A stretch of DNA of 42,999 bases, taken from Kagunavirus LM08P2. The stretch lies in the sequence record OZ035738.1. One strand, 5' to 3'. A model generated the notes under the pieces. That model saw only the letters and a program-made list of their open reading frames with translations. It ran no database searches and had not been told where the DNA came from. Shown here piece after piece: positions 4,351-42,067 of the stretch. Position 1 is the first letter of the stretch. Each line of letters opens with the position of its first letter. Position numbers and translations under genes: made by a program.

Positions 4351-4378
4351 AAAGGCCCCATTACGGGGCCTTAGTTTT
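4351..4378. terminator. Bidirectional intrinsic terminator between convergent genes
   Basis: AAGGCCCC-ATTAC-GGGGCCTT hairpin flanked by A-run upstream and T-run downstream, between + gene ending 4348 and - gene ending 4377. Confidence 0.6.
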
Positions 4379-4622: not shown

Positions 4623-4648
4623 ACACCCTCCTCGTTTCGATGTAATGA

Positions 4649-4677
4649 ATAGTACCCTATTATATTGGTGTGTGCAA
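4649..4677 (-). promoter_or_regulatory. Sigma70-like promoter, family 2 (TTGCAC-N17-TACTAT)
   Basis: Read on minus strand: TTGCACACACCAATATAATAGGGTACTAT; near-identical copies at 13790-13818(-), 36393-36421(+), 37829-37857(+). Confidence 0.5.
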
Positions 4678-4690
4678 ACTATTTATTTAC

Positions 4691-4743
4691 GTATTCCAGT
4701 TATTCCACTCAATTGTAAATGTTGGAATAAACTATTCGAATAG
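4691..4743. promoter_or_regulatory. Cluster of TGGAATA/TATTCCA repeats upstream of promoter at 4744
   Basis: TATTCCA at 4692-4698 and 4701-4707 with inverted partner TGGAATA at 4723-4729; similar TGGAATA pair at 5485-5512. Confidence 0.4.
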
Positions 4744-4772
4744 TTGACTTTTCACTAAAAATGTGCTAAGCT
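4744..4772 (+). promoter_or_regulatory. Promoter TTGACT-N17-TAAGCT (TG-extended), copy 1
   Basis: TTGACTTTTCACTAAAAATGTGCTAAGCT; nearly identical sequence at 36084-36112. Confidence 0.5.
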
Positions 4773-4779
4773 CCACCTG

Positions 4780-4978
4780 AGCTTGTGAAGTATGAACAAG
4801 CGACCGCGGCGCGGGCAGGTAACGGAGCGGGACGTAAGTCCTGAGTGTAGTTACGCTGACGCGTTCGGAAGGGCCATACTCTATTGCTTGTGTAAAAAGT
4901 AACTGGTTTACTGAGATTACGCCGTTTCTATGTTTAAATGATAAGGACTAGCGCCCCGCTTTATGGCGGGGCTTTACT
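4780..4978 (+). ncRNA. Candidate structured noncoding RNA / leader element, copy 1
   Basis: About 110 nt downstream of the promoter is conserved with the copy at 36119-36230; contains hairpins with compensatory differences between copies; no ORF conserved between copies; ends at a GC-rich hairpin plus T-run at 4951-4978. Confidence 0.45.
4951..4978 (+). terminator. Intrinsic terminator
   Basis: GCGCCCCGC-TTTATG-GCGGGGC followed by TTTACTT, immediately upstream of the spanin RBS. Confidence 0.55.
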
Positions 4979-4996: not shown

Positions 4997-5383
4997 ATGA
5001 ATCTTAAAGCAACTGTCGTAGCAGGAGCATGTTTCATCATCCTGTTATACACGCACGGCTACTATCAATACCGCAGCGGCTGGAACGGAGGCAGGGCTAA
5101 TCTAGTTTCGCAGCAACAGCAGAAAGCACAGGCTGAGTTAGCGAAGAAAACACAACGGCAGCAGCAGGACGAATCAAAGGCCGCCGCCGCTGACAACGAA
5201 GGCAAGACGAAATCAGAGGTGATTACCCGTGAAGTCGTTAAGTACATTAAAACGCCTGGCCGCAGCGTGTGCACTTTCGACGATGCTCGCGTCCTGCTCA
5301 AGTCCCGCGCCGTCGCAAACGCCAATTCCATCCCCGGATACGACGATGATGCAGCCGCCATGCAAACTGGCCGCGCCAAGTAG
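4997..5383 (+). CDS. i-spanin (Rz-like inner membrane spanin)
   Basis: 128 aa; N-terminal hydrophobic TMD (ATVVAGACFIILLY) then Q/A/K/E-rich predicted coiled coil; overlapped by a lipoprotein ORF in another frame; strong SD AAAGGAGAAA. Confidence 0.55.
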   Translation: MNLKATVVAGACFIILLYTHGYYQYRSGWNGGRANLVSQQQQKAQAELAKKTQRQQQDESKAAAADNEGKTKSEVITREVVKYIKTPGRSVCTFDDARVLLKSRAVANANSIPGYDDDAAAMQTGRAK

Positions 5384-5492
5384 CGATGCCGATGAGGATT
5401 TAGCCATTGACGTTCAGAACACAGAATGTGTACGGCAACTGCGTCTGAAAGTGTTCATGTTGCAGGATTACGTGAGGAATATTCTGGAATAG
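5229..5492 (+). CDS. o-spanin (Rz1-like outer membrane lipoprotein)
   Basis: 87 aa from GTG start with SD GAGGTGA; signal peptide ending in lipobox LASC; proline-rich mature region; begins inside the i-spanin gene in the +1 frame and extends past its stop. Confidence 0.55.
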   Translation: MKSLSTLKRLAAACALSTMLASCSSPAPSQTPIPSPDTTMMQPPCKLAAPSSDADEDLAIDVQNTECVRQLRLKVFMLQDYVRNILE

Positions 5493-5526
5493 TTGCCTTG
5501 CATGTTGGAATAATTTATTCTTGACA
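5475..5526. promoter_or_regulatory. TGGAATA repeat cluster and promoter-like region upstream of scaffold/capsid genes
   Basis: GAATATTC palindrome 5477-5484, TGGAATA at 5485-5491 and 5506-5512, TTGACA at 5521-5526; shares TGTTGGAATAA...TATTC...TTGAC with 4720-4749. Confidence 0.35.
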
Positions 5527-11737: not shown

Positions 11738-11768
11738 CTAAGGCCCCTTTCGGGGCCTTTTTCTTACT
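11738..11768. terminator. Bidirectional intrinsic terminator
   Basis: AAGGCCCC-TTTC-GGGGCCTTTTTCTT with A-rich 5' flank; sits between + major tail gene and - cassette. Confidence 0.7.
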
Positions 11769-13761: not shown

Positions 13762-13789
13762 AATTATTTCCTCAGTAAGTTACAAGTGA

Positions 13790-13818
13790 ATAGTACCCTA
13801 TTATATTGGGGTGTGCAA
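13790..13818 (-). promoter_or_regulatory. Sigma70-like promoter, family 2
   Basis: On minus strand TTGCACACCCCAATATAATAGGGTACTAT; drives the 13761-to-11764 cassette. Confidence 0.5.
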
Positions 13819-23805: not shown

Positions 23806-23832
23806 TAAGGCCCCATTTGGGGCCTTTTCTCT
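23806..23832. terminator. Bidirectional intrinsic terminator
   Basis: AAGGCCCC-ATTT-GGGGCCTTTTCTCT with A-run upstream; between convergent modules. Confidence 0.7.
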
Positions 23833-35520: not shown

Positions 35521-35811
35521 TTATCTATTAGCCAGACATTCCATCAAATGCGCGTACTTACGATAATAATCTACGACAATCTCATCACCGAAATACTGAT
35601 AAACGTACGCTAAGTGGTCAGAGACATCGATGGAAGCCGACATTGTGCTGAGTCTTCGGAGACTAATCAACTGTAATTCTTCTGTAACGCAAAACGGTGA
35701 ATAAGAGTCCAGCTTACAAGAAACGTTAAAGCACAACGCATATTCGCCTTGCACTAAATAAACCATATAAGCACTGTCATTTTCTTTATCGTGGAAAATT
35801 ACACCTTTCAT
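35521..35811 (-). CDS. Hypothetical protein (96 aa)
   Basis: ORF with ATGA coupling to upstream HTH gene. Confidence 0.4.
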   Translation of the reverse strand: MKGVIFHDKENDSAYMVYLVQGEYALCFNVSCKLDSYSPFCVTEELQLISLRRLSTMSASIDVSDHLAYVYQYFGDEIVVDYYRKYAHLMECLANR

Positions 35812-35976
35812 TTCACGTTCTCCTTAATCCACGCCTCAACTTTATTACGGTCAAATGTACCAGGTAAACGGCGACCCATTACTTTAACGCTGCAATCAGG
35901 AAACTTTCCACTCTTAATCCAGTTATTGATTGTCTGGCGGGTGACTCCGATTAATTCTGCAACTTCATTGATAGTC
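35808..35976 (-). CDS. Small HTH DNA-binding protein (AlpA/excisionase-like fold)
   Basis: ATG at 35976 with SD AGGAGAG; MTINEVAELIGVTRQTINNWIKSGKFP is a typical phage HTH; first gene of leftward early operon; track start 36068 is an upstream extension. Confidence 0.55.
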
Positions 35977-36005
35977 ATTTCGCGCTCTCCTGTGTAAGAT
36001 GTATC

Positions 36006-36083: not shown

Positions 36084-36112
36084 TTGACTTTTACTTAAAA
36101 ATATGCTAAGCT
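36084..36112 (+). promoter_or_regulatory. Promoter TTGACT-N17-TAAGCT (TG-extended), copy 2
   Basis: TTGACTTTTACTTAAAAATATGCTAAGCT, nearly identical to 4744-4772. Confidence 0.5.
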
Positions 36113-36118
36113 TCACTG

Positions 36119-36353
36119 AGCTTGTGAGATATCGCAAGCGACCGCGGAGCGGCAGGGAACGCAACGCGTGCCATTAGGCACTTGAGTGTAGTTCCGCTGG
36201 CGCTTTCGGAAGGGCCAAAGTCTATTGTTAATCCCGCCTAAATACCCAAGTCACTGATAATTAAAAGTTTCTATAGTTGCCGTAAGCAAGGTGGAGAGTA
36301 CTTCACTCCGCTGGGGTGGGCTAACGCCCACCCACTGCGTTGCGTACTCTTTT
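36119..36353 (+). ncRNA. Candidate structured noncoding RNA / leader element, copy 2
   Basis: Conserved with 4780-4886 over about 110 nt; no ORF; GC-rich hairpin GGGTGGGC-TAAC-GCCCACCC at 36313-36333 enclosed by GAGAGTAC/GTACTCT and followed by TTTT. Confidence 0.45.
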
Positions 36354-36392: not shown

Positions 36393-36421
36393 TTGCACAC
36401 ACCAACATAATAGGATACTAT
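36393..36421 (+). promoter_or_regulatory. Sigma70-like promoter, family 2
   Basis: TTGCACACACCAACATAATAGGATACTAT upstream of 36456 gene. Confidence 0.5.
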
Positions 36422-36455
36422 TCACTTATAGAAACGAGACAGAGGAGTGAGGGTT

Positions 36456-37183: not shown

Positions 37184-37327
37184 ATGAGAGAAGCATTCGA
37201 ACGGTGGGCCGTCGTCGAGGGTCTGCCGGTTAACAAGGGTTCGAAGAAAGAGTACCTGAACGTTAAGACGCGTCTCGCGTGGCGGGCGTGGAAAGCTGGT
37301 GTGTTGTTTATCGCGAATCGGAGGTGA
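37184..37327 (+). CDS. Small hypothetical protein (47 aa)
   Basis: Hand-translated MREAFERWAVVEGLPVNKGSKKEYLNVKTRLAWRAWKAGVLFIANRR; SD GAGGAC. Confidence 0.35.
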   Translation: MREAFERWAVVEGLPVNKGSKKEYLNVKTRLAWRAWKAGVLFIANRR

Positions 37328-37330
37328 TTT

Positions 37331-37516
37331 ATGGGTGAGTGGATTAAGTGTAGTGAGCGGATGCCTGAGCCTTATGAATACGTTCTTGTAACTGATTGTT
37401 TTGTTGGCTGTGAGGTTATGCGTGTTAATTCAGATGGCTACTGGGGGCCTGCAAAGAGTTTATATCACGGTGATATAACGCACTGGATGCCGTTACCTGA
37501 GCCGCCGGAGGTGTGA
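37331..37516 (+). CDS. DUF551-like protein
   Basis: 61 aa; EWIKCSERMPE...VLV...ITHWMPLPEPP matches the DUF551 pattern common in enterobacterial phages. Confidence 0.6.
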   Translation: MGEWIKCSERMPEPYEYVLVTDCFVGCEVMRVNSDGYWGPAKSLYHGDITHWMPLPEPPEV

Positions 37517-38024: not shown

Positions 38025-38172
38025 TTTCGTGGTGCAAGCAATGTACGCTGAGGAAATGGCAAAAAGTATGTTAGAGCAAACATTACATTTCGCTAAGCTG
38101 CAAGGGTTCGACGTACAGACAGTAGGCGACGAAATAGTATTGACCGAGAAGTCGGAGAACGGTGATGAGTAA
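38017..38172 (+). CDS. Small hypothetical protein (51 aa)
   Basis: Hand-translated ORF overlapping neighbours. Confidence 0.3.
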   Translation: MNNFVVQAMYAEEMAKSMLEQTLHFAKLQGFDVQTVGDEIVLTEKSENGDE

Positions 38173-38638
38173 CAACGACGCAGTAATCGAGTTCCTGCTT
38201 AACCAACTACGGCAGCAGTTAACTAACAACCCATACAAGCAACAGTGCGAAGACCTGGCCCATGAGGTGCAGTCACTTAAGAATCAGTTACGTGATATGT
38301 CGGAGCTGGTGGACGAGCTACTCGGGACAATAACGCTAATGAACGGGGATGTAGAGGCGTACAAAGTTCTACGCAAAGGTGGGTACGTTAATGGGGGTCA
38401 GCGATACGTAGTAGGAGAACACGGACCTGAGCAATCTGGTTGCCGTAAGGAAGACGTTCAGGAATGCGTGCACGAGTGGGCGCTTGATGAAAAAGGTGAC
38501 TACTTCGTTTGCACTAAATGCGGTAAGCAAGAGGCGGAATTGAACGATTGCCAACACACTAATACCGTTGGTTTGCGTAAGGGTTTTGCGCCGGGGTTTA
38601 CTATAAAGTGCCTGGATTGCGGGGCTAAACTGAGATGA
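38165..38638 (+). CDS. Zinc-ribbon protein with N-terminal coiled coil
   Basis: Cys pairs CTKCG and CLDCG plus CVHEW/CQH in C-terminal half; ATG 38165 (track start 38162 is GTG). Confidence 0.45.
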   Translation: MSNNDAVIEFLLNQLRQQLTNNPYKQQCEDLAHEVQSLKNQLRDMSELVDELLGTITLMNGDVEAYKVLRKGGYVNGGQRYVVGEHGPEQSGCRKEDVQECVHEWALDEKGDYFVCTKCGKQEAELNDCQHTNTVGLRKGFAPGFTIKCLDCGAKLR

Positions 38639-38838
38639 CCAGCATCCTCTTTATCTGGGTATTGTCCGCAGGCCAGATGCACCTGGCGGCCTCAGAAACG
38701 TTTTACTCGATGGAGGCGTGCCAGTCAGCGGCACGCGCCGCAGAGAACGCGCACTTCCTGTTTCAGGGCGACAAGCCAAACGATTCGGAGGTACGTGCTA
38801 TCTGCTCACCTAAGCGACTTGGTAAACAGGAGAAATAA
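38635..38838 (+). CDS. Small protein with signal-peptide-like N-terminus
   Basis: 67 aa; MTSILFIWVLSAGQMHLAAS hydrophobic N-terminus. Confidence 0.4.
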   Translation: MTSILFIWVLSAGQMHLAASETFYSMEACQSAARAAENAHFLFQGDKPNDSEVRAICSPKRLGKQEK

Positions 38839-39131
38839 TGTCTCTGGCAACTGACATCCTGAAACGAAGCGGCCTTGCGCCGCTGTCGCCGAGAGCGAAC
38901 ACCCGGATGCACAAGCGCCGAGGTAACGCGCTGTACCCCGAGATTCAGGCCAGACGCAAAGCTGTCCGCGCCTGCGGATTCCAGAACGGGAAGGCCGTGA
39001 ATCTCGGTGAGTTTAAAACACAGGAACGCGCAGCTATCGCTAATCGGCTATTTAATTACTGGAAATCGCTGGGGTACGATGATATTCCGACGAAACCGCA
39101 GAGACGGCAATACATCTGGAGACACAAATAA
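38838..39131 (+). CDS. Hypothetical basic protein
   Basis: 97-aa ORF with SD CAGGAGA. Confidence 0.4.
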   Translation: MSLATDILKRSGLAPLSPRANTRMHKRRGNALYPEIQARRKAVRACGFQNGKAVNLGEFKTQERAAIANRLFNYWKSLGYDDIPTKPQRRQYIWRHK

Positions 39132-40401: not shown

Positions 40402-40476
40402 ACCAATTGACACCTAAGACTAATCCGACGATACTTAAATCACCTCCTGTTCCATCCCTCTGCTCTCCAGTTTTAT

Positions 40477-40506
40477 CCCGGCCCTGGCCCAGCCGGGATT
40501 TTTTTA
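40477..40506 (+). terminator. Second intrinsic terminator
   Basis: CCCGGC-CCTGGCCCA-GCCGGG followed by ATTTTTTTAT. Confidence 0.6.
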
Positions 40507-41553: not shown

Positions 41554-41834
41554 TGGCGCGTACCGTTGCCGCAAGATTCACAGATATTGAGTCTGCGATA
41601 GAAGAAGCTGTTTATAGCAAATTCTGTAACCCCTCTGCGACACATAACTACGGGGTTATCATTAAATACGGCAAGTTTGAAATCAGGAGAGTGCGTGCCG
41701 GCCGTCCGCACGAGTTTTTATGGACAACAGAAAGCCTCATCCCGCGGTGCCACATTTACACAAGCGGTGCACATACGATTTTTGTGGACATCACTAAGAA
41801 AGACATTACTGTCACTAAAGGAGAGACAAATTGA
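41553..41834 (+). CDS. Hypothetical protein
   Basis: 93-aa ORF. Confidence 0.4.
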   Translation: MARTVAARFTDIESAIEEAVYSKFCNPSATHNYGVIIKYGKFEIRRVRAGRPHEFLWTTESLIPRCHIYTSGAHTIFVDITKKDITVTKGETN

Positions 41835-42067
41835 TTACCAGCATCCCTAAACTGATTGAAGAGTACGGAAGTATGTCGGAGACTTGCCGACAAACCGGTA
41901 TCTGCGAGATGACGATTGCCAAGTACAGCAAAGACGTGAACTGCGAGCGCCACGTAATTTATAACAATCGTCTGATGACGCATGTTAAGACAAGCCCGGT
42001 ATTATTCACGCGCCGTGGTATCACTAAAACAGAGCAACGCGTTGCTAGAGAGGAGAGTGGGGGATGA
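41831..42067 (+). CDS. Putative DNA-binding protein
   Basis: TTG start after SD AAAGGAGAG; SETCRQTGICEMTIAKYSKD resembles an HTH. Confidence 0.4.
   Translation: MITSIPKLIEEYGSMSETCRQTGICEMTIAKYSKDVNCERHVIYNNRLMTHVKTSPVLFTRRGITKTEQRVAREESGG

Follow-up and report, generated by a model that had tools for sequence, protein, structure and literature searches.

A previously undescribed structured RNA at the head of the Guernseyvirinae late operon, with an accessory second copy in Kagunavirus LM08P2

What is encoded by the intergenic stretch at positions 36084-36353 of Kagunavirus LM08P2 (OZ035738.1)? A first-pass annotation, made from the sequence of the window (the whole 42,999-nucleotide stretch of DNA analyzed here), had taken it for the second copy of a duplicated element and had suggested that the element specifies a modular RNA. 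We found that it holds the accessory second copy of a new structured RNA family, the Guernseyvirinae late-leader RNA, which has not been described previously. The family is of a familiar general kind, that of phage promoter-proximal regulatory RNAs, and sequence comparisons allow a function to be proposed for it. The window (43 kb) is a Kagunavirus of the subfamily Guernseyvirinae with close kin among phages of Escherichia, Salmonella, and Raoultella, and Kagunavirus LM08P1 is 99.9% identical to it over the queried region. The Guernseyvirinae are virulent siphophages, and the Jersey-like and K1G-like phages among them are widely used in Salmonella and Escherichia coli phage therapy and biocontrol.

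The string TTGACTTTTnnnnAAAAATnTGCTAAGCT was found exactly twice in the window, at 4744-4772 and 36084-36112, whereas shuffled sequences are expected to contain none. Judged by consensus, both sites are putative sigma70-type promoters. The promoters of the two copies are identical at 30 of 35 positions (86%), and the cores downstream (4778-4886 and 36117-36227) at 90 of 113 positions (80%). The duplication claimed by the first-pass annotation is therefore real and far beyond chance. The conserved block had been placed at 36119-36218; the block exists, but these limits are slightly short, because the covariance model described below matches 36118-36227. The 3' parts had been called unrelated, and they are: downstream of the core, identity between the copies is 51%, compared with 49 ± 3% in shuffled sequences, and the sole common element there is a short GTTTCTAT motif. 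Transcription of copy 2 is predicted to start at ~36117-36119. The parts of the two copies are as follows.

36084..36112, + strand: copy-2 putative promoter (TTGACT, 17-nucleotide [nt] spacer, TAAGCT, TGn as extended -10)
36118..36227, + strand: copy-2 structured RNA core (covariance-model match of 103.5 bits, E = 4e-25)
36120-36139, 36142-36209, and 36168-36181, + strand: hairpin P1, stem P2, and apical hairpin (GUGCC-AUUA-GGCAC) of the copy-2 core
36210-36227, + strand: conserved 3' tail of the copy-2 core, GAAGGGCC..GUCUAUUG
36228..36295, + strand: copy-2 AU-rich spacer, locus-specific, ~60 nt or slightly more
36296..36353, + strand: copy-2 long interrupted hairpin, GAGUAC...GGGUGGGC-UAAC-GCCCACCC...GUACUC followed by UUUU, a terminator-like 3' end
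4744..4772, + strand: copy-1 putative promoter (TTGACT, 17-nt spacer, TAAGCT, TGn)
4779..4886, + strand: copy-1 structured RNA core (matched by the covariance model at 129.6 bits), with which the late-operon leader begins
4953..4972, + strand: copy-1 leader hairpin/terminator, GCCCCGC-UUUA-(U)GGCGGGGC followed by UUUACUU, found by terminator scan

The terminator-like character ascribed to the 3' end of copy 2 was borne out by folding. The hairpin at 36296-36349 has a free energy of -28.8 kcal/mol (z = -3.6 relative to shuffled sequences) and is followed by TTTT at 36350-36353; a simple terminator scan missed it because its stem is long and interrupted. The copy-1 leader hairpin folds at -17.9 kcal/mol (z = -5.6). 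The U tracts after the hairpins read UUUACUU in copy 1, UUUU in copy 2, and UUAGCGU in the Jerseyvirus (J-type) version of the element. From these features we infer that the promoters fire and that transcription terminates at the hairpins.

Homologues gathered from GenBank phages and IMG/VR yielded 30 distinct variants of the Kagunavirus-like (K-type) core. Their fold starts with a 5' hairpin (P1) and continues with P2, a long irregular stem whose internal loop is conserved and whose apical hairpin varies; the 3' tail is conserved. A plain MAFFT alignment analyzed with RNAalifold already revealed P1, P2, and compensatory pairs among the K-type cores: columns 32/91 are occupied by CG (14), UA (8), and AU (3), and columns 42/80 by UA (12), AU (9), and GC (4). 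Single-sequence folds agreed with the fold of the alignment, and the copy-2 core had a minimum free energy of -49.3 kcal/mol (z = -3.9). A covariance model composed of the alignment structure and the apical hairpin matched every Guernseyvirinae copy at 86-130 bits and matched nothing else.

In the K-type alignment fitted to this model, 97.6% of the cells pair and 8 pairs are changed on both sides; in slid controls, where the 3' partners were moved by 1-3 columns, 28-38% paired. The alignment of K- and J-type sequences together gave 95.3% paired cells and changes on both sides in 14 of 26 pairs, as opposed to 25-41% paired in its slid controls. G-U pairs make up ~5% of the cells and, together with the orientation of the promoter, they place the RNA on the + strand. 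Compensatory base changes separate copy 1 from copy 2 and recur across hundreds of phages. The conserved block is a structured RNA that is selected at the RNA level.

The J-type version has a P1 that is entirely different in sequence (UACGCU-UUC-AGCGUA), another middle part of P2, and another apical hairpin, with a stem base (ACCGCGGnGCGG ... CGCnUUCGG) and a tail (AAGGGCC) identical to those of the K-type. Invariance is thus confined to certain parts of the fold: the base of the stem and the 3' tail UUCGGAAGGGCC are invariant and the purine-rich internal loop is conserved, and the sequence of the apical hairpin is not conserved, its loop being GUAA, AUUA, UGUAG, or CACA in different variants. 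The core begins a few nucleotides from the predicted start site in every locus.

The core contains no conserved reading frame, and indels in its loops shift the frame between the copies. A coding function was rejected, given that the frames differ between copies and that the substitutions are compensatory rather than synonymous. In phage fBC-Eco01, a coding sequence (CDS) of 38 amino acids (aa), fBCEco01_09, is annotated over the RNA core (L003, 1542-1658). This CDS and similar small "hypothetical protein" CDSs over the core in other records are probably spurious, because their frame is not conserved between copies or variants. Two further structures were considered and set aside. A pseudoknot joining the loop of P1 (AGUAU) to the tail (AUACU) was unsupported, the tail varying among AUAC, AUAG, AUAU, and AUAA while the loop stays unchanged. 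A small CCGC-GGN-GCGG hairpin was superseded by the long-range P2 pairing, since its "loop" nucleotide covaries with the 3' strand; variant L039 retains this hairpin, which may be a transient alternative fold.

We evaluated how widespread the RNA is. K-type cores were present in 180 phage records, 42 of which carry one at a second place, and J-type leaders were present in 269; a related major capsid gene was found in 466 records. By these counts, copy 1 is essentially universal in the subfamily (~449 of 466), and copy 2 is accessory (~42 genomes). Most Salmonella Jerseyviruses gave no BLAST match and yet carry a diverged version at the same locus (41 bits in Ent1). In Pseudomonas phage PMBT14, a more distant relative by its capsid gene, the head-morphogenesis, scaffold, and capsid genes abut, with no leader at this position. 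Real matches in three IMG/VR pattern scans were confined to Guernseyvirinae-like contigs. No homologue of the element was found in 5,426 E. coli genomes, in a search that excludes long matches only. Among 185,579 species genomes, the sole true match was a 6.2-kb Kagunavirus-like contig in a "Bacillota bacterium" metagenome-assembled genome (MAG). This contig (JAEWLW010000073.1, L102) carries a Kagunavirus copy-2 locus that matches the RNA model at 96 bits; it almost certainly belongs to a phage and was mis-binned into the MAG.

Rfam 15 gave no match anywhere in the window at the gathering score, and at E<=10 both copies and the J-type version gave sub-threshold chance matches only. The window contains no tRNA or tmRNA. 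The element goes unmentioned in the genome papers and in one Kagunavirus transcriptome paper.

A conserved 5' domain in leader position, joined to a variable 3' part with a terminator-like end, is the layout of a riboswitch or attenuator, with the core as ligand aptamer and the downstream hairpin as expression platform. Such a function is hardly to be expected here. No Rfam riboswitch matched even at permissive E-values, the core is a single irregular hairpin with no multi-helix junction, and ~65 nt of nonconserved AU-rich spacer lie between core and hairpin. No conserved anti-terminator pairing was found: the tail variants GGCC, GGGUC, and GGCCC do not covary with the hairpin, and the hairpins of copy 2 and of the J-type differ with no matching change in the core.

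Every copy-1 locus examined has the same order, namely, a TATTCC/GGAATA array, the promoter, the core (from ~+1), an AU-rich spacer of ~65 nt, a GC hairpin, a Shine-Dalgarno sequence (SD), and the ATG of the spanin gene. The SD and the ATG come ~15 nt past the hairpin; in the window, the hairpin ends 24 nt ahead of the spanin start codon (4997). This leaves no space for a promoter between the hairpin and the ATG, and late transcripts from the copy-1 promoter must therefore pass the hairpin. The hairpin is present in all copy-1 loci, and its compensatory variants, GCCCTGC/GCAGGGC (L008) and GCCCGAC/GTCGGGC in the J-type (L116), indicate that it is itself under selection. In the K-type, with its UUUACUU, it resembles a moderate intrinsic terminator; in Jerseyviruses, it has a poor U tract (UUAGCGUAU), by which most family members are probably 5' untranslated regions (UTRs) rather than discrete small RNAs (sRNAs). 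The late operon has copy 1 as its 5' leader.

Upstream of its promoter lies one of two half-site arrays in the window.

4682..4743, no strand assigned: TATTCC/GGAATA half-site array, ending in a perfect palindrome, ACTATTCGAATAGT, that abuts the copy-1 -35 (center at ~-41.5)
5477-5526: similar half-site array, GGAATATTCTGGAATAG...TTGGAATAATTTATTC-TTGACA, just ahead of the scaffold gene and followed by a CCGGG-UGG-CCCGG hairpin

The array is found in all copy-1 loci, in a diverged form in Jerseyviruses, and is absent at copy 2. The motif TGGAATAAnnTATTC occurs at both arrays, with 8 matches at <=2 mismatches against 0.8 expected. Judging from these repeats, the arrays are probably the binding region of a late regulator.

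A leader of this kind could serve the late mRNA after transcription, P1 and P2 shielding it from RNase E or from 5'-end-dependent decay, directing its processing, or tuning spanin translation. The structure does begin at the very 5' end of the transcript, it is an mRNA leader in all copy-1 loci, and a conserved hairpin lies ~15 nt upstream of the SD. A simple stabilizer, however, needs neither invariant loop and tail nucleotides nor a ~100-nt architecture maintained across diverged phages. Copy 2 would also go unexplained, since no coding region follows it, only a terminator-like hairpin and, beyond that, a separate promoter. A posttranscriptional UTR role therefore appears improbable.

By analogy with known systems, we incline, tentatively and short of considering it probable, to a cis-acting leader RNA that controls elongation or terminator read-through. 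Host RNA polymerase (RNAP) would start at the sigma70-type promoter, and the first ~110 nt would fold while emerging. The folded leader would then act in cis on the transcription complex that made it, either directly, as does HK022 put RNA, or by loading a phage or host factor, as do lambda nut and the PR' leader/qut. The effect would be control of pausing and of read-through at the GC hairpin or terminator and at later terminators. Copy 1 would in this manner gate the late operon (spanin, scaffold, major capsid, and onward), and copy 2 would be the same module placed ahead of the early-right/lysis/packaging transcription unit.

Several considerations point to such action in cis. The core stands at the very start of the transcripts, passage of the hairpin is obligatory before the late genes, the two copies head rightward units, and the invariant nucleotides cluster where a binding surface might be expected, at the base of the stem, in the internal loop, and in the tail. 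In addition, neither an open reading frame (ORF) nor a trans target was found: the core has no complementarity of at least 14 nt to other phage regions, only scattered 10-13-mers, none of them at ribosome-binding sites (RBSs). PHROGs and Pfam scans of 30 gene products recognized no N- or Q-type protein, and the mechanism could therefore be RNA-only or employ a novel factor.

The put RNA of HK022 mediates factor-independent antitermination and antipausing through the zinc-binding domain of the RNAP beta' subunit (PMC9378689). Like putL and putR, and the put-like RNAs of HK639 and HK75, the Guernseyvirinae element is a phage-encoded, promoter-proximal structured RNA with two stem-loops that would be made by host RNAP. 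It likewise exists as two diverged copies per genome, each heading a major transcription unit upstream of terminators, with no dedicated antiterminator protein recognizable. The promoters (4744 and 36084), the cores starting at ~+1, and the hairpins (4953 and 36296) all lie on the same strand, in the arrangement seen at put. The differences are considerable. The element is ~100-110 nt long with a short P1 and a long P2, whereas put consists of two ~35-nt stems; the copy that is universal in Guernseyvirinae leads the late operon and not the early ones, the second copy is accessory, the hosts are virulent phages, and action on RNAP is proposed by analogy. A stronger proposal would see in the element a self-sufficient RNA for antitermination or elongation control that forms a second class, independent of put in evolution, put-like in function, and structurally unrelated. 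It would drive late genes with unmodified host RNAP, need no N- or Q-type protein, and be portable as a promoter-plus-RNA cassette copied by phages to further operons. We regard this as unlikely.

The late region of lambda is laid out as PR'-6S-tR'-S/R/Rz, that is, promoter, leader, terminator, and lysis genes. Copy 1 resembles PR'-qut-6S-tR' in having a host-type promoter, an untranslated leader of ~200 nt (from 4778 to 4972, ahead of the ATG at 4997; in the J-type, the U tract of the hairpin is weak), and a hairpin terminator directly before late genes that start with a lysis gene, the Rz-like spanin. A -10-like repeat that may correspond to that of the PR' leader adjoins the start site, although it is imperfect here. 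Unlike at lambda, no Q homologue was found among the products scanned. No covarying RNA fold is known to be required of the lambda 6S leader, whereas the fold of the Guernseyvirinae leader is strongly conserved.

This layout raises the possibility that the site works primarily as DNA: it would be a late promoter region of the Q type, its invariant initial transcribed sequence being a sigma70-dependent pause or a loading site for a DNA-binding antiterminator and its RNA fold being secondary. The -10 is nearly repeated downstream in the K-type (TAAGCT..TGAGCT, at 4767-4772 and 4778-4783 and at 36107-36112 and 36117-36122), in a manner that recalls sigma-dependent pause elements and could also be a tandem -10. 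The J-type repeat is TACGCT-ACC-TACGCT (L106, ~1503-1517), so the repeat changes in step with the -10 between lineages. In addition, CTGAGCTTGTGA is invariant while the preceding 4-5 nt vary, and the array upstream of copy 1 is conserved and resembles a protein-binding region. Against a DNA site, the K-type repeat has G at the critical -11 A position, and the J-type repeat overlaps the predicted start site and not the transcribed region. In addition, strong covariation in P2 and in the apical hairpin, far from the promoter, requires a function at the RNA level. With the lack of a detected Q-family protein, this makes a DNA-level explanation distinctly improbable.

The lambda and P22 nutL-nutR pair is comparable in being two cis-acting RNA signals downstream of promoters, and many variants of the element have hairpins with GNRA-type loops. 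Neither leader, however, contains a boxA (CGCUCUUA / UGCUCUUUAACAA) at <=3 mismatches, the sequence and loop of the apical hairpin are not conserved, and no N-like protein was detected. The RfaH ops element GGCGGTAGnnTG is absent from both leaders at <=1 mismatch, and its 3 matches elsewhere are at chance level.

Copy 2 sits between the leftward helix-turn-helix (HTH)/replication genes and a rightward early promoter. Its own promoter is kept in every copy-2 locus examined. The long hairpin is kept in copy-2 loci of the window type, and RP180-type loci have a weaker hairpin instead (GGUGCC-UUCG-GCACC) with a poor tail. A nearly identical core variant occupies the copy-1 locus in phage L025 and the copy-2 locus in L051, and some copy-2 loci carry copy-1-like promoter spacers; promoter plus core thus moves between loci as a cassette and appears interchangeable. 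The early promoter downstream had been assigned to a "family 2," correctly, as it is one of three near-identical copies in the window (TTGCAC, 17-nt spacer, TACTAT).

4646-4677, - strand: family 2 promoter
13787-13818, - strand: family 2 promoter
36393-36424, + strand: family 2 promoter, downstream of copy 2

A near-palindrome, AATAGG(G/A)TACTATT, spans the -10 of these promoters. They have ACTATTC/GAATAGT in common with the palindrome upstream of copy 1, and one regulator might hence repress the early promoters and activate the late one. The paper on fBC-Eco01 labels them "phage RNA polymerase promoters"; the annotation of the relative AV104 contains no phage RNAP gene.

Several observations weigh against control of elongation in cis. 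Copy 2 is followed by an early promoter of its own at 36393, so that read-through is not needed for the early genes. The tail operon has an apparent promoter of its own as well, by which long-range antitermination is not obligatory. In Jerseyviruses, the poor U tract means that there may be little to antiterminate. Covariance searches did not connect the element with put: the Guernseyvirinae model gave no match at E<1 to the HK022 put loci (L005 and L006), and a putL+putR model, which recovered the put sites at 91 and 84 bits, matched the window at chance level only (below 10 bits) and the element not at all. Homology to put was rejected, the profile searches failing in both directions. Copy 2 is absent from most family members. 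Phages that lack it have an unrelated promoter, hairpin RNA, and terminator in the same slot, as in the following unit.

L097 900-1260, Escherichia phage Bas75: promoter (TTGAAA, 18-nt spacer, TATAAT), long hairpin GGAGUUGACGAA...UUCGUCAACUCC, terminator GGGCAGGC-UUAA-GCCUGCCC, then a family 2 promoter

The content of the slot is swappable, and because other phages hold a different short promoter-hairpin-terminator unit there, it looks like an sRNA locus. Finally, one study (PMC10325885) reports that long terminator stems resist processive antitermination; together with the unusually long copy-2 stem, this hints at a discrete RNA as the product of copy 2.

Some of these observations favor a stand-alone, trans-acting sRNA or protein decoy. 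Transcripts of ~200 nt (copy 1) and ~235 nt (copy 2) would end at the hairpins, and the core would have as its partner in trans a protein or RNA of host or phage, such as a host regulator, a nuclease, or a defense component. Both copies in the window combine a promoter with a terminator-like hairpin, the copy-2 hairpin is long and strong with a separate promoter insulating the early operon, and the invariant nucleotides of stem base, loop, and tail would suit a protein-binding surface. Copy 2 in particular resembles terminator-ending sRNAs, such as lambda oop and Hfq-dependent sRNAs, with its own promoter, structured body, hairpin 3' end, and intergenic site. Yet the universal copy runs straight on into the late operon and has no promoter past its hairpin, the J-type hairpin lacks a usable U tract, and RP180-type copy 2 has a weak terminator only. 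Moreover, short or interrupted U tails set the element apart from typical Hfq-dependent sRNAs, and no convincing target complementarity was found within the phage. We consider a free RNA less probable than action in cis but a serious rival to it.

The modular RNA suggested by the first-pass annotation thus survives in part. The compensatory changes in the 5' block, the sigma70-type promoter of its own, the differing 3' parts that each end in a GC-rich hairpin, and the module-like behavior of promoter plus core agree with it. A stand-alone RNA with terminator-ending domains is not supported for the family, in which copy 1 is a late leader, the J-type U tract is poor, and the RP180-type hairpin is weaker.

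The leader RNA is the most conserved noncoding feature at the head of the Guernseyvirinae capsid operon, absent from Rfam and sometimes misannotated as a small CDS. If it is a self-sufficient antiterminator RNA, a whole subfamily of virulent siphophages (~450 sequenced genomes) would use it for their late genes. If it modifies RNAP, put would be the only such family before it, and the promoter plus leader would make a compact part for the engineering of read-through. Should it be a free sRNA or decoy, it would point to a host or phage partner. Either way, there is now a defined structure, an alignment, and a set of mutational targets, namely, the P2 base, the internal loop, and the GGAAGGGCC tail.

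The transcription units into which the two copies fit were mapped from the annotated relative AV104.

~36.4 kb to ~4.3 kb, + strand: rightward unit with small early genes, lysis genes, terminase, portal, and head genes
from ~5.0 kb, + strand: second rightward unit, from the Rz-like spanin, scaffold, and major capsid on to the major tail protein
from 13.9 kb: tail unit, in the AV104-based map
35.9 to 23.6 kb, leftward: replication genes
7344, + strand: terminator after the capsid gene, further into the late operon
11740, + strand: terminator where the late operon ends

Two repeat families accompany these units. On the - strand, the leftward replication operon is punctuated by three near-consensus promoters identical to one another (TTGACA, 17/18-nt spacer, TATAGT), at 32897-32868, 30274-30246, and 26610-26582. 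A family of bidirectional terminators, AAGGCCCC-nnnn-GGGGCCUU, lies at junctions of convergent transcription units (4352-4372, 11740-11759, and 23807-23826).

Two proteins of the early-right region look like nucleic-acid binders by their sequence motifs. One (38162-38638, + strand), 158 aa long, combines a coiled coil at its N terminus with CxxC...CxxC zinc-ribbon motifs at its C terminus; the other (38838-39131, + strand) is a basic protein of 97 aa with an AP2-like motif (LGEFKTQERAAIANRLF). Together with an NinH-like protein (41831-42064) and an HTH_17 protein (35808-35978, - strand), they are candidate regulators. PDB sequence searches for candidate regulators, with three unknown proteins as queries, were uninformative.

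A short sRNA-like unit is present at 40407-40505 on the + strand. It has a promoter (TTGACA, 17-nt spacer, GATACT), a predicted transcript of ~65 nt, a CCCGGCC...GGCCGGG hairpin, and a U7 tract. Its 5' end (UAAAUCACCUCCUGUUCC) contains an anti-SD-like sequence, and 12 nt of UAAAUCACCUCCUGUUCC form a perfect complement of the RBS and start region (GGAGGUGAUUUA-UG; 37320-37331) of the ORF at 37331-37516.

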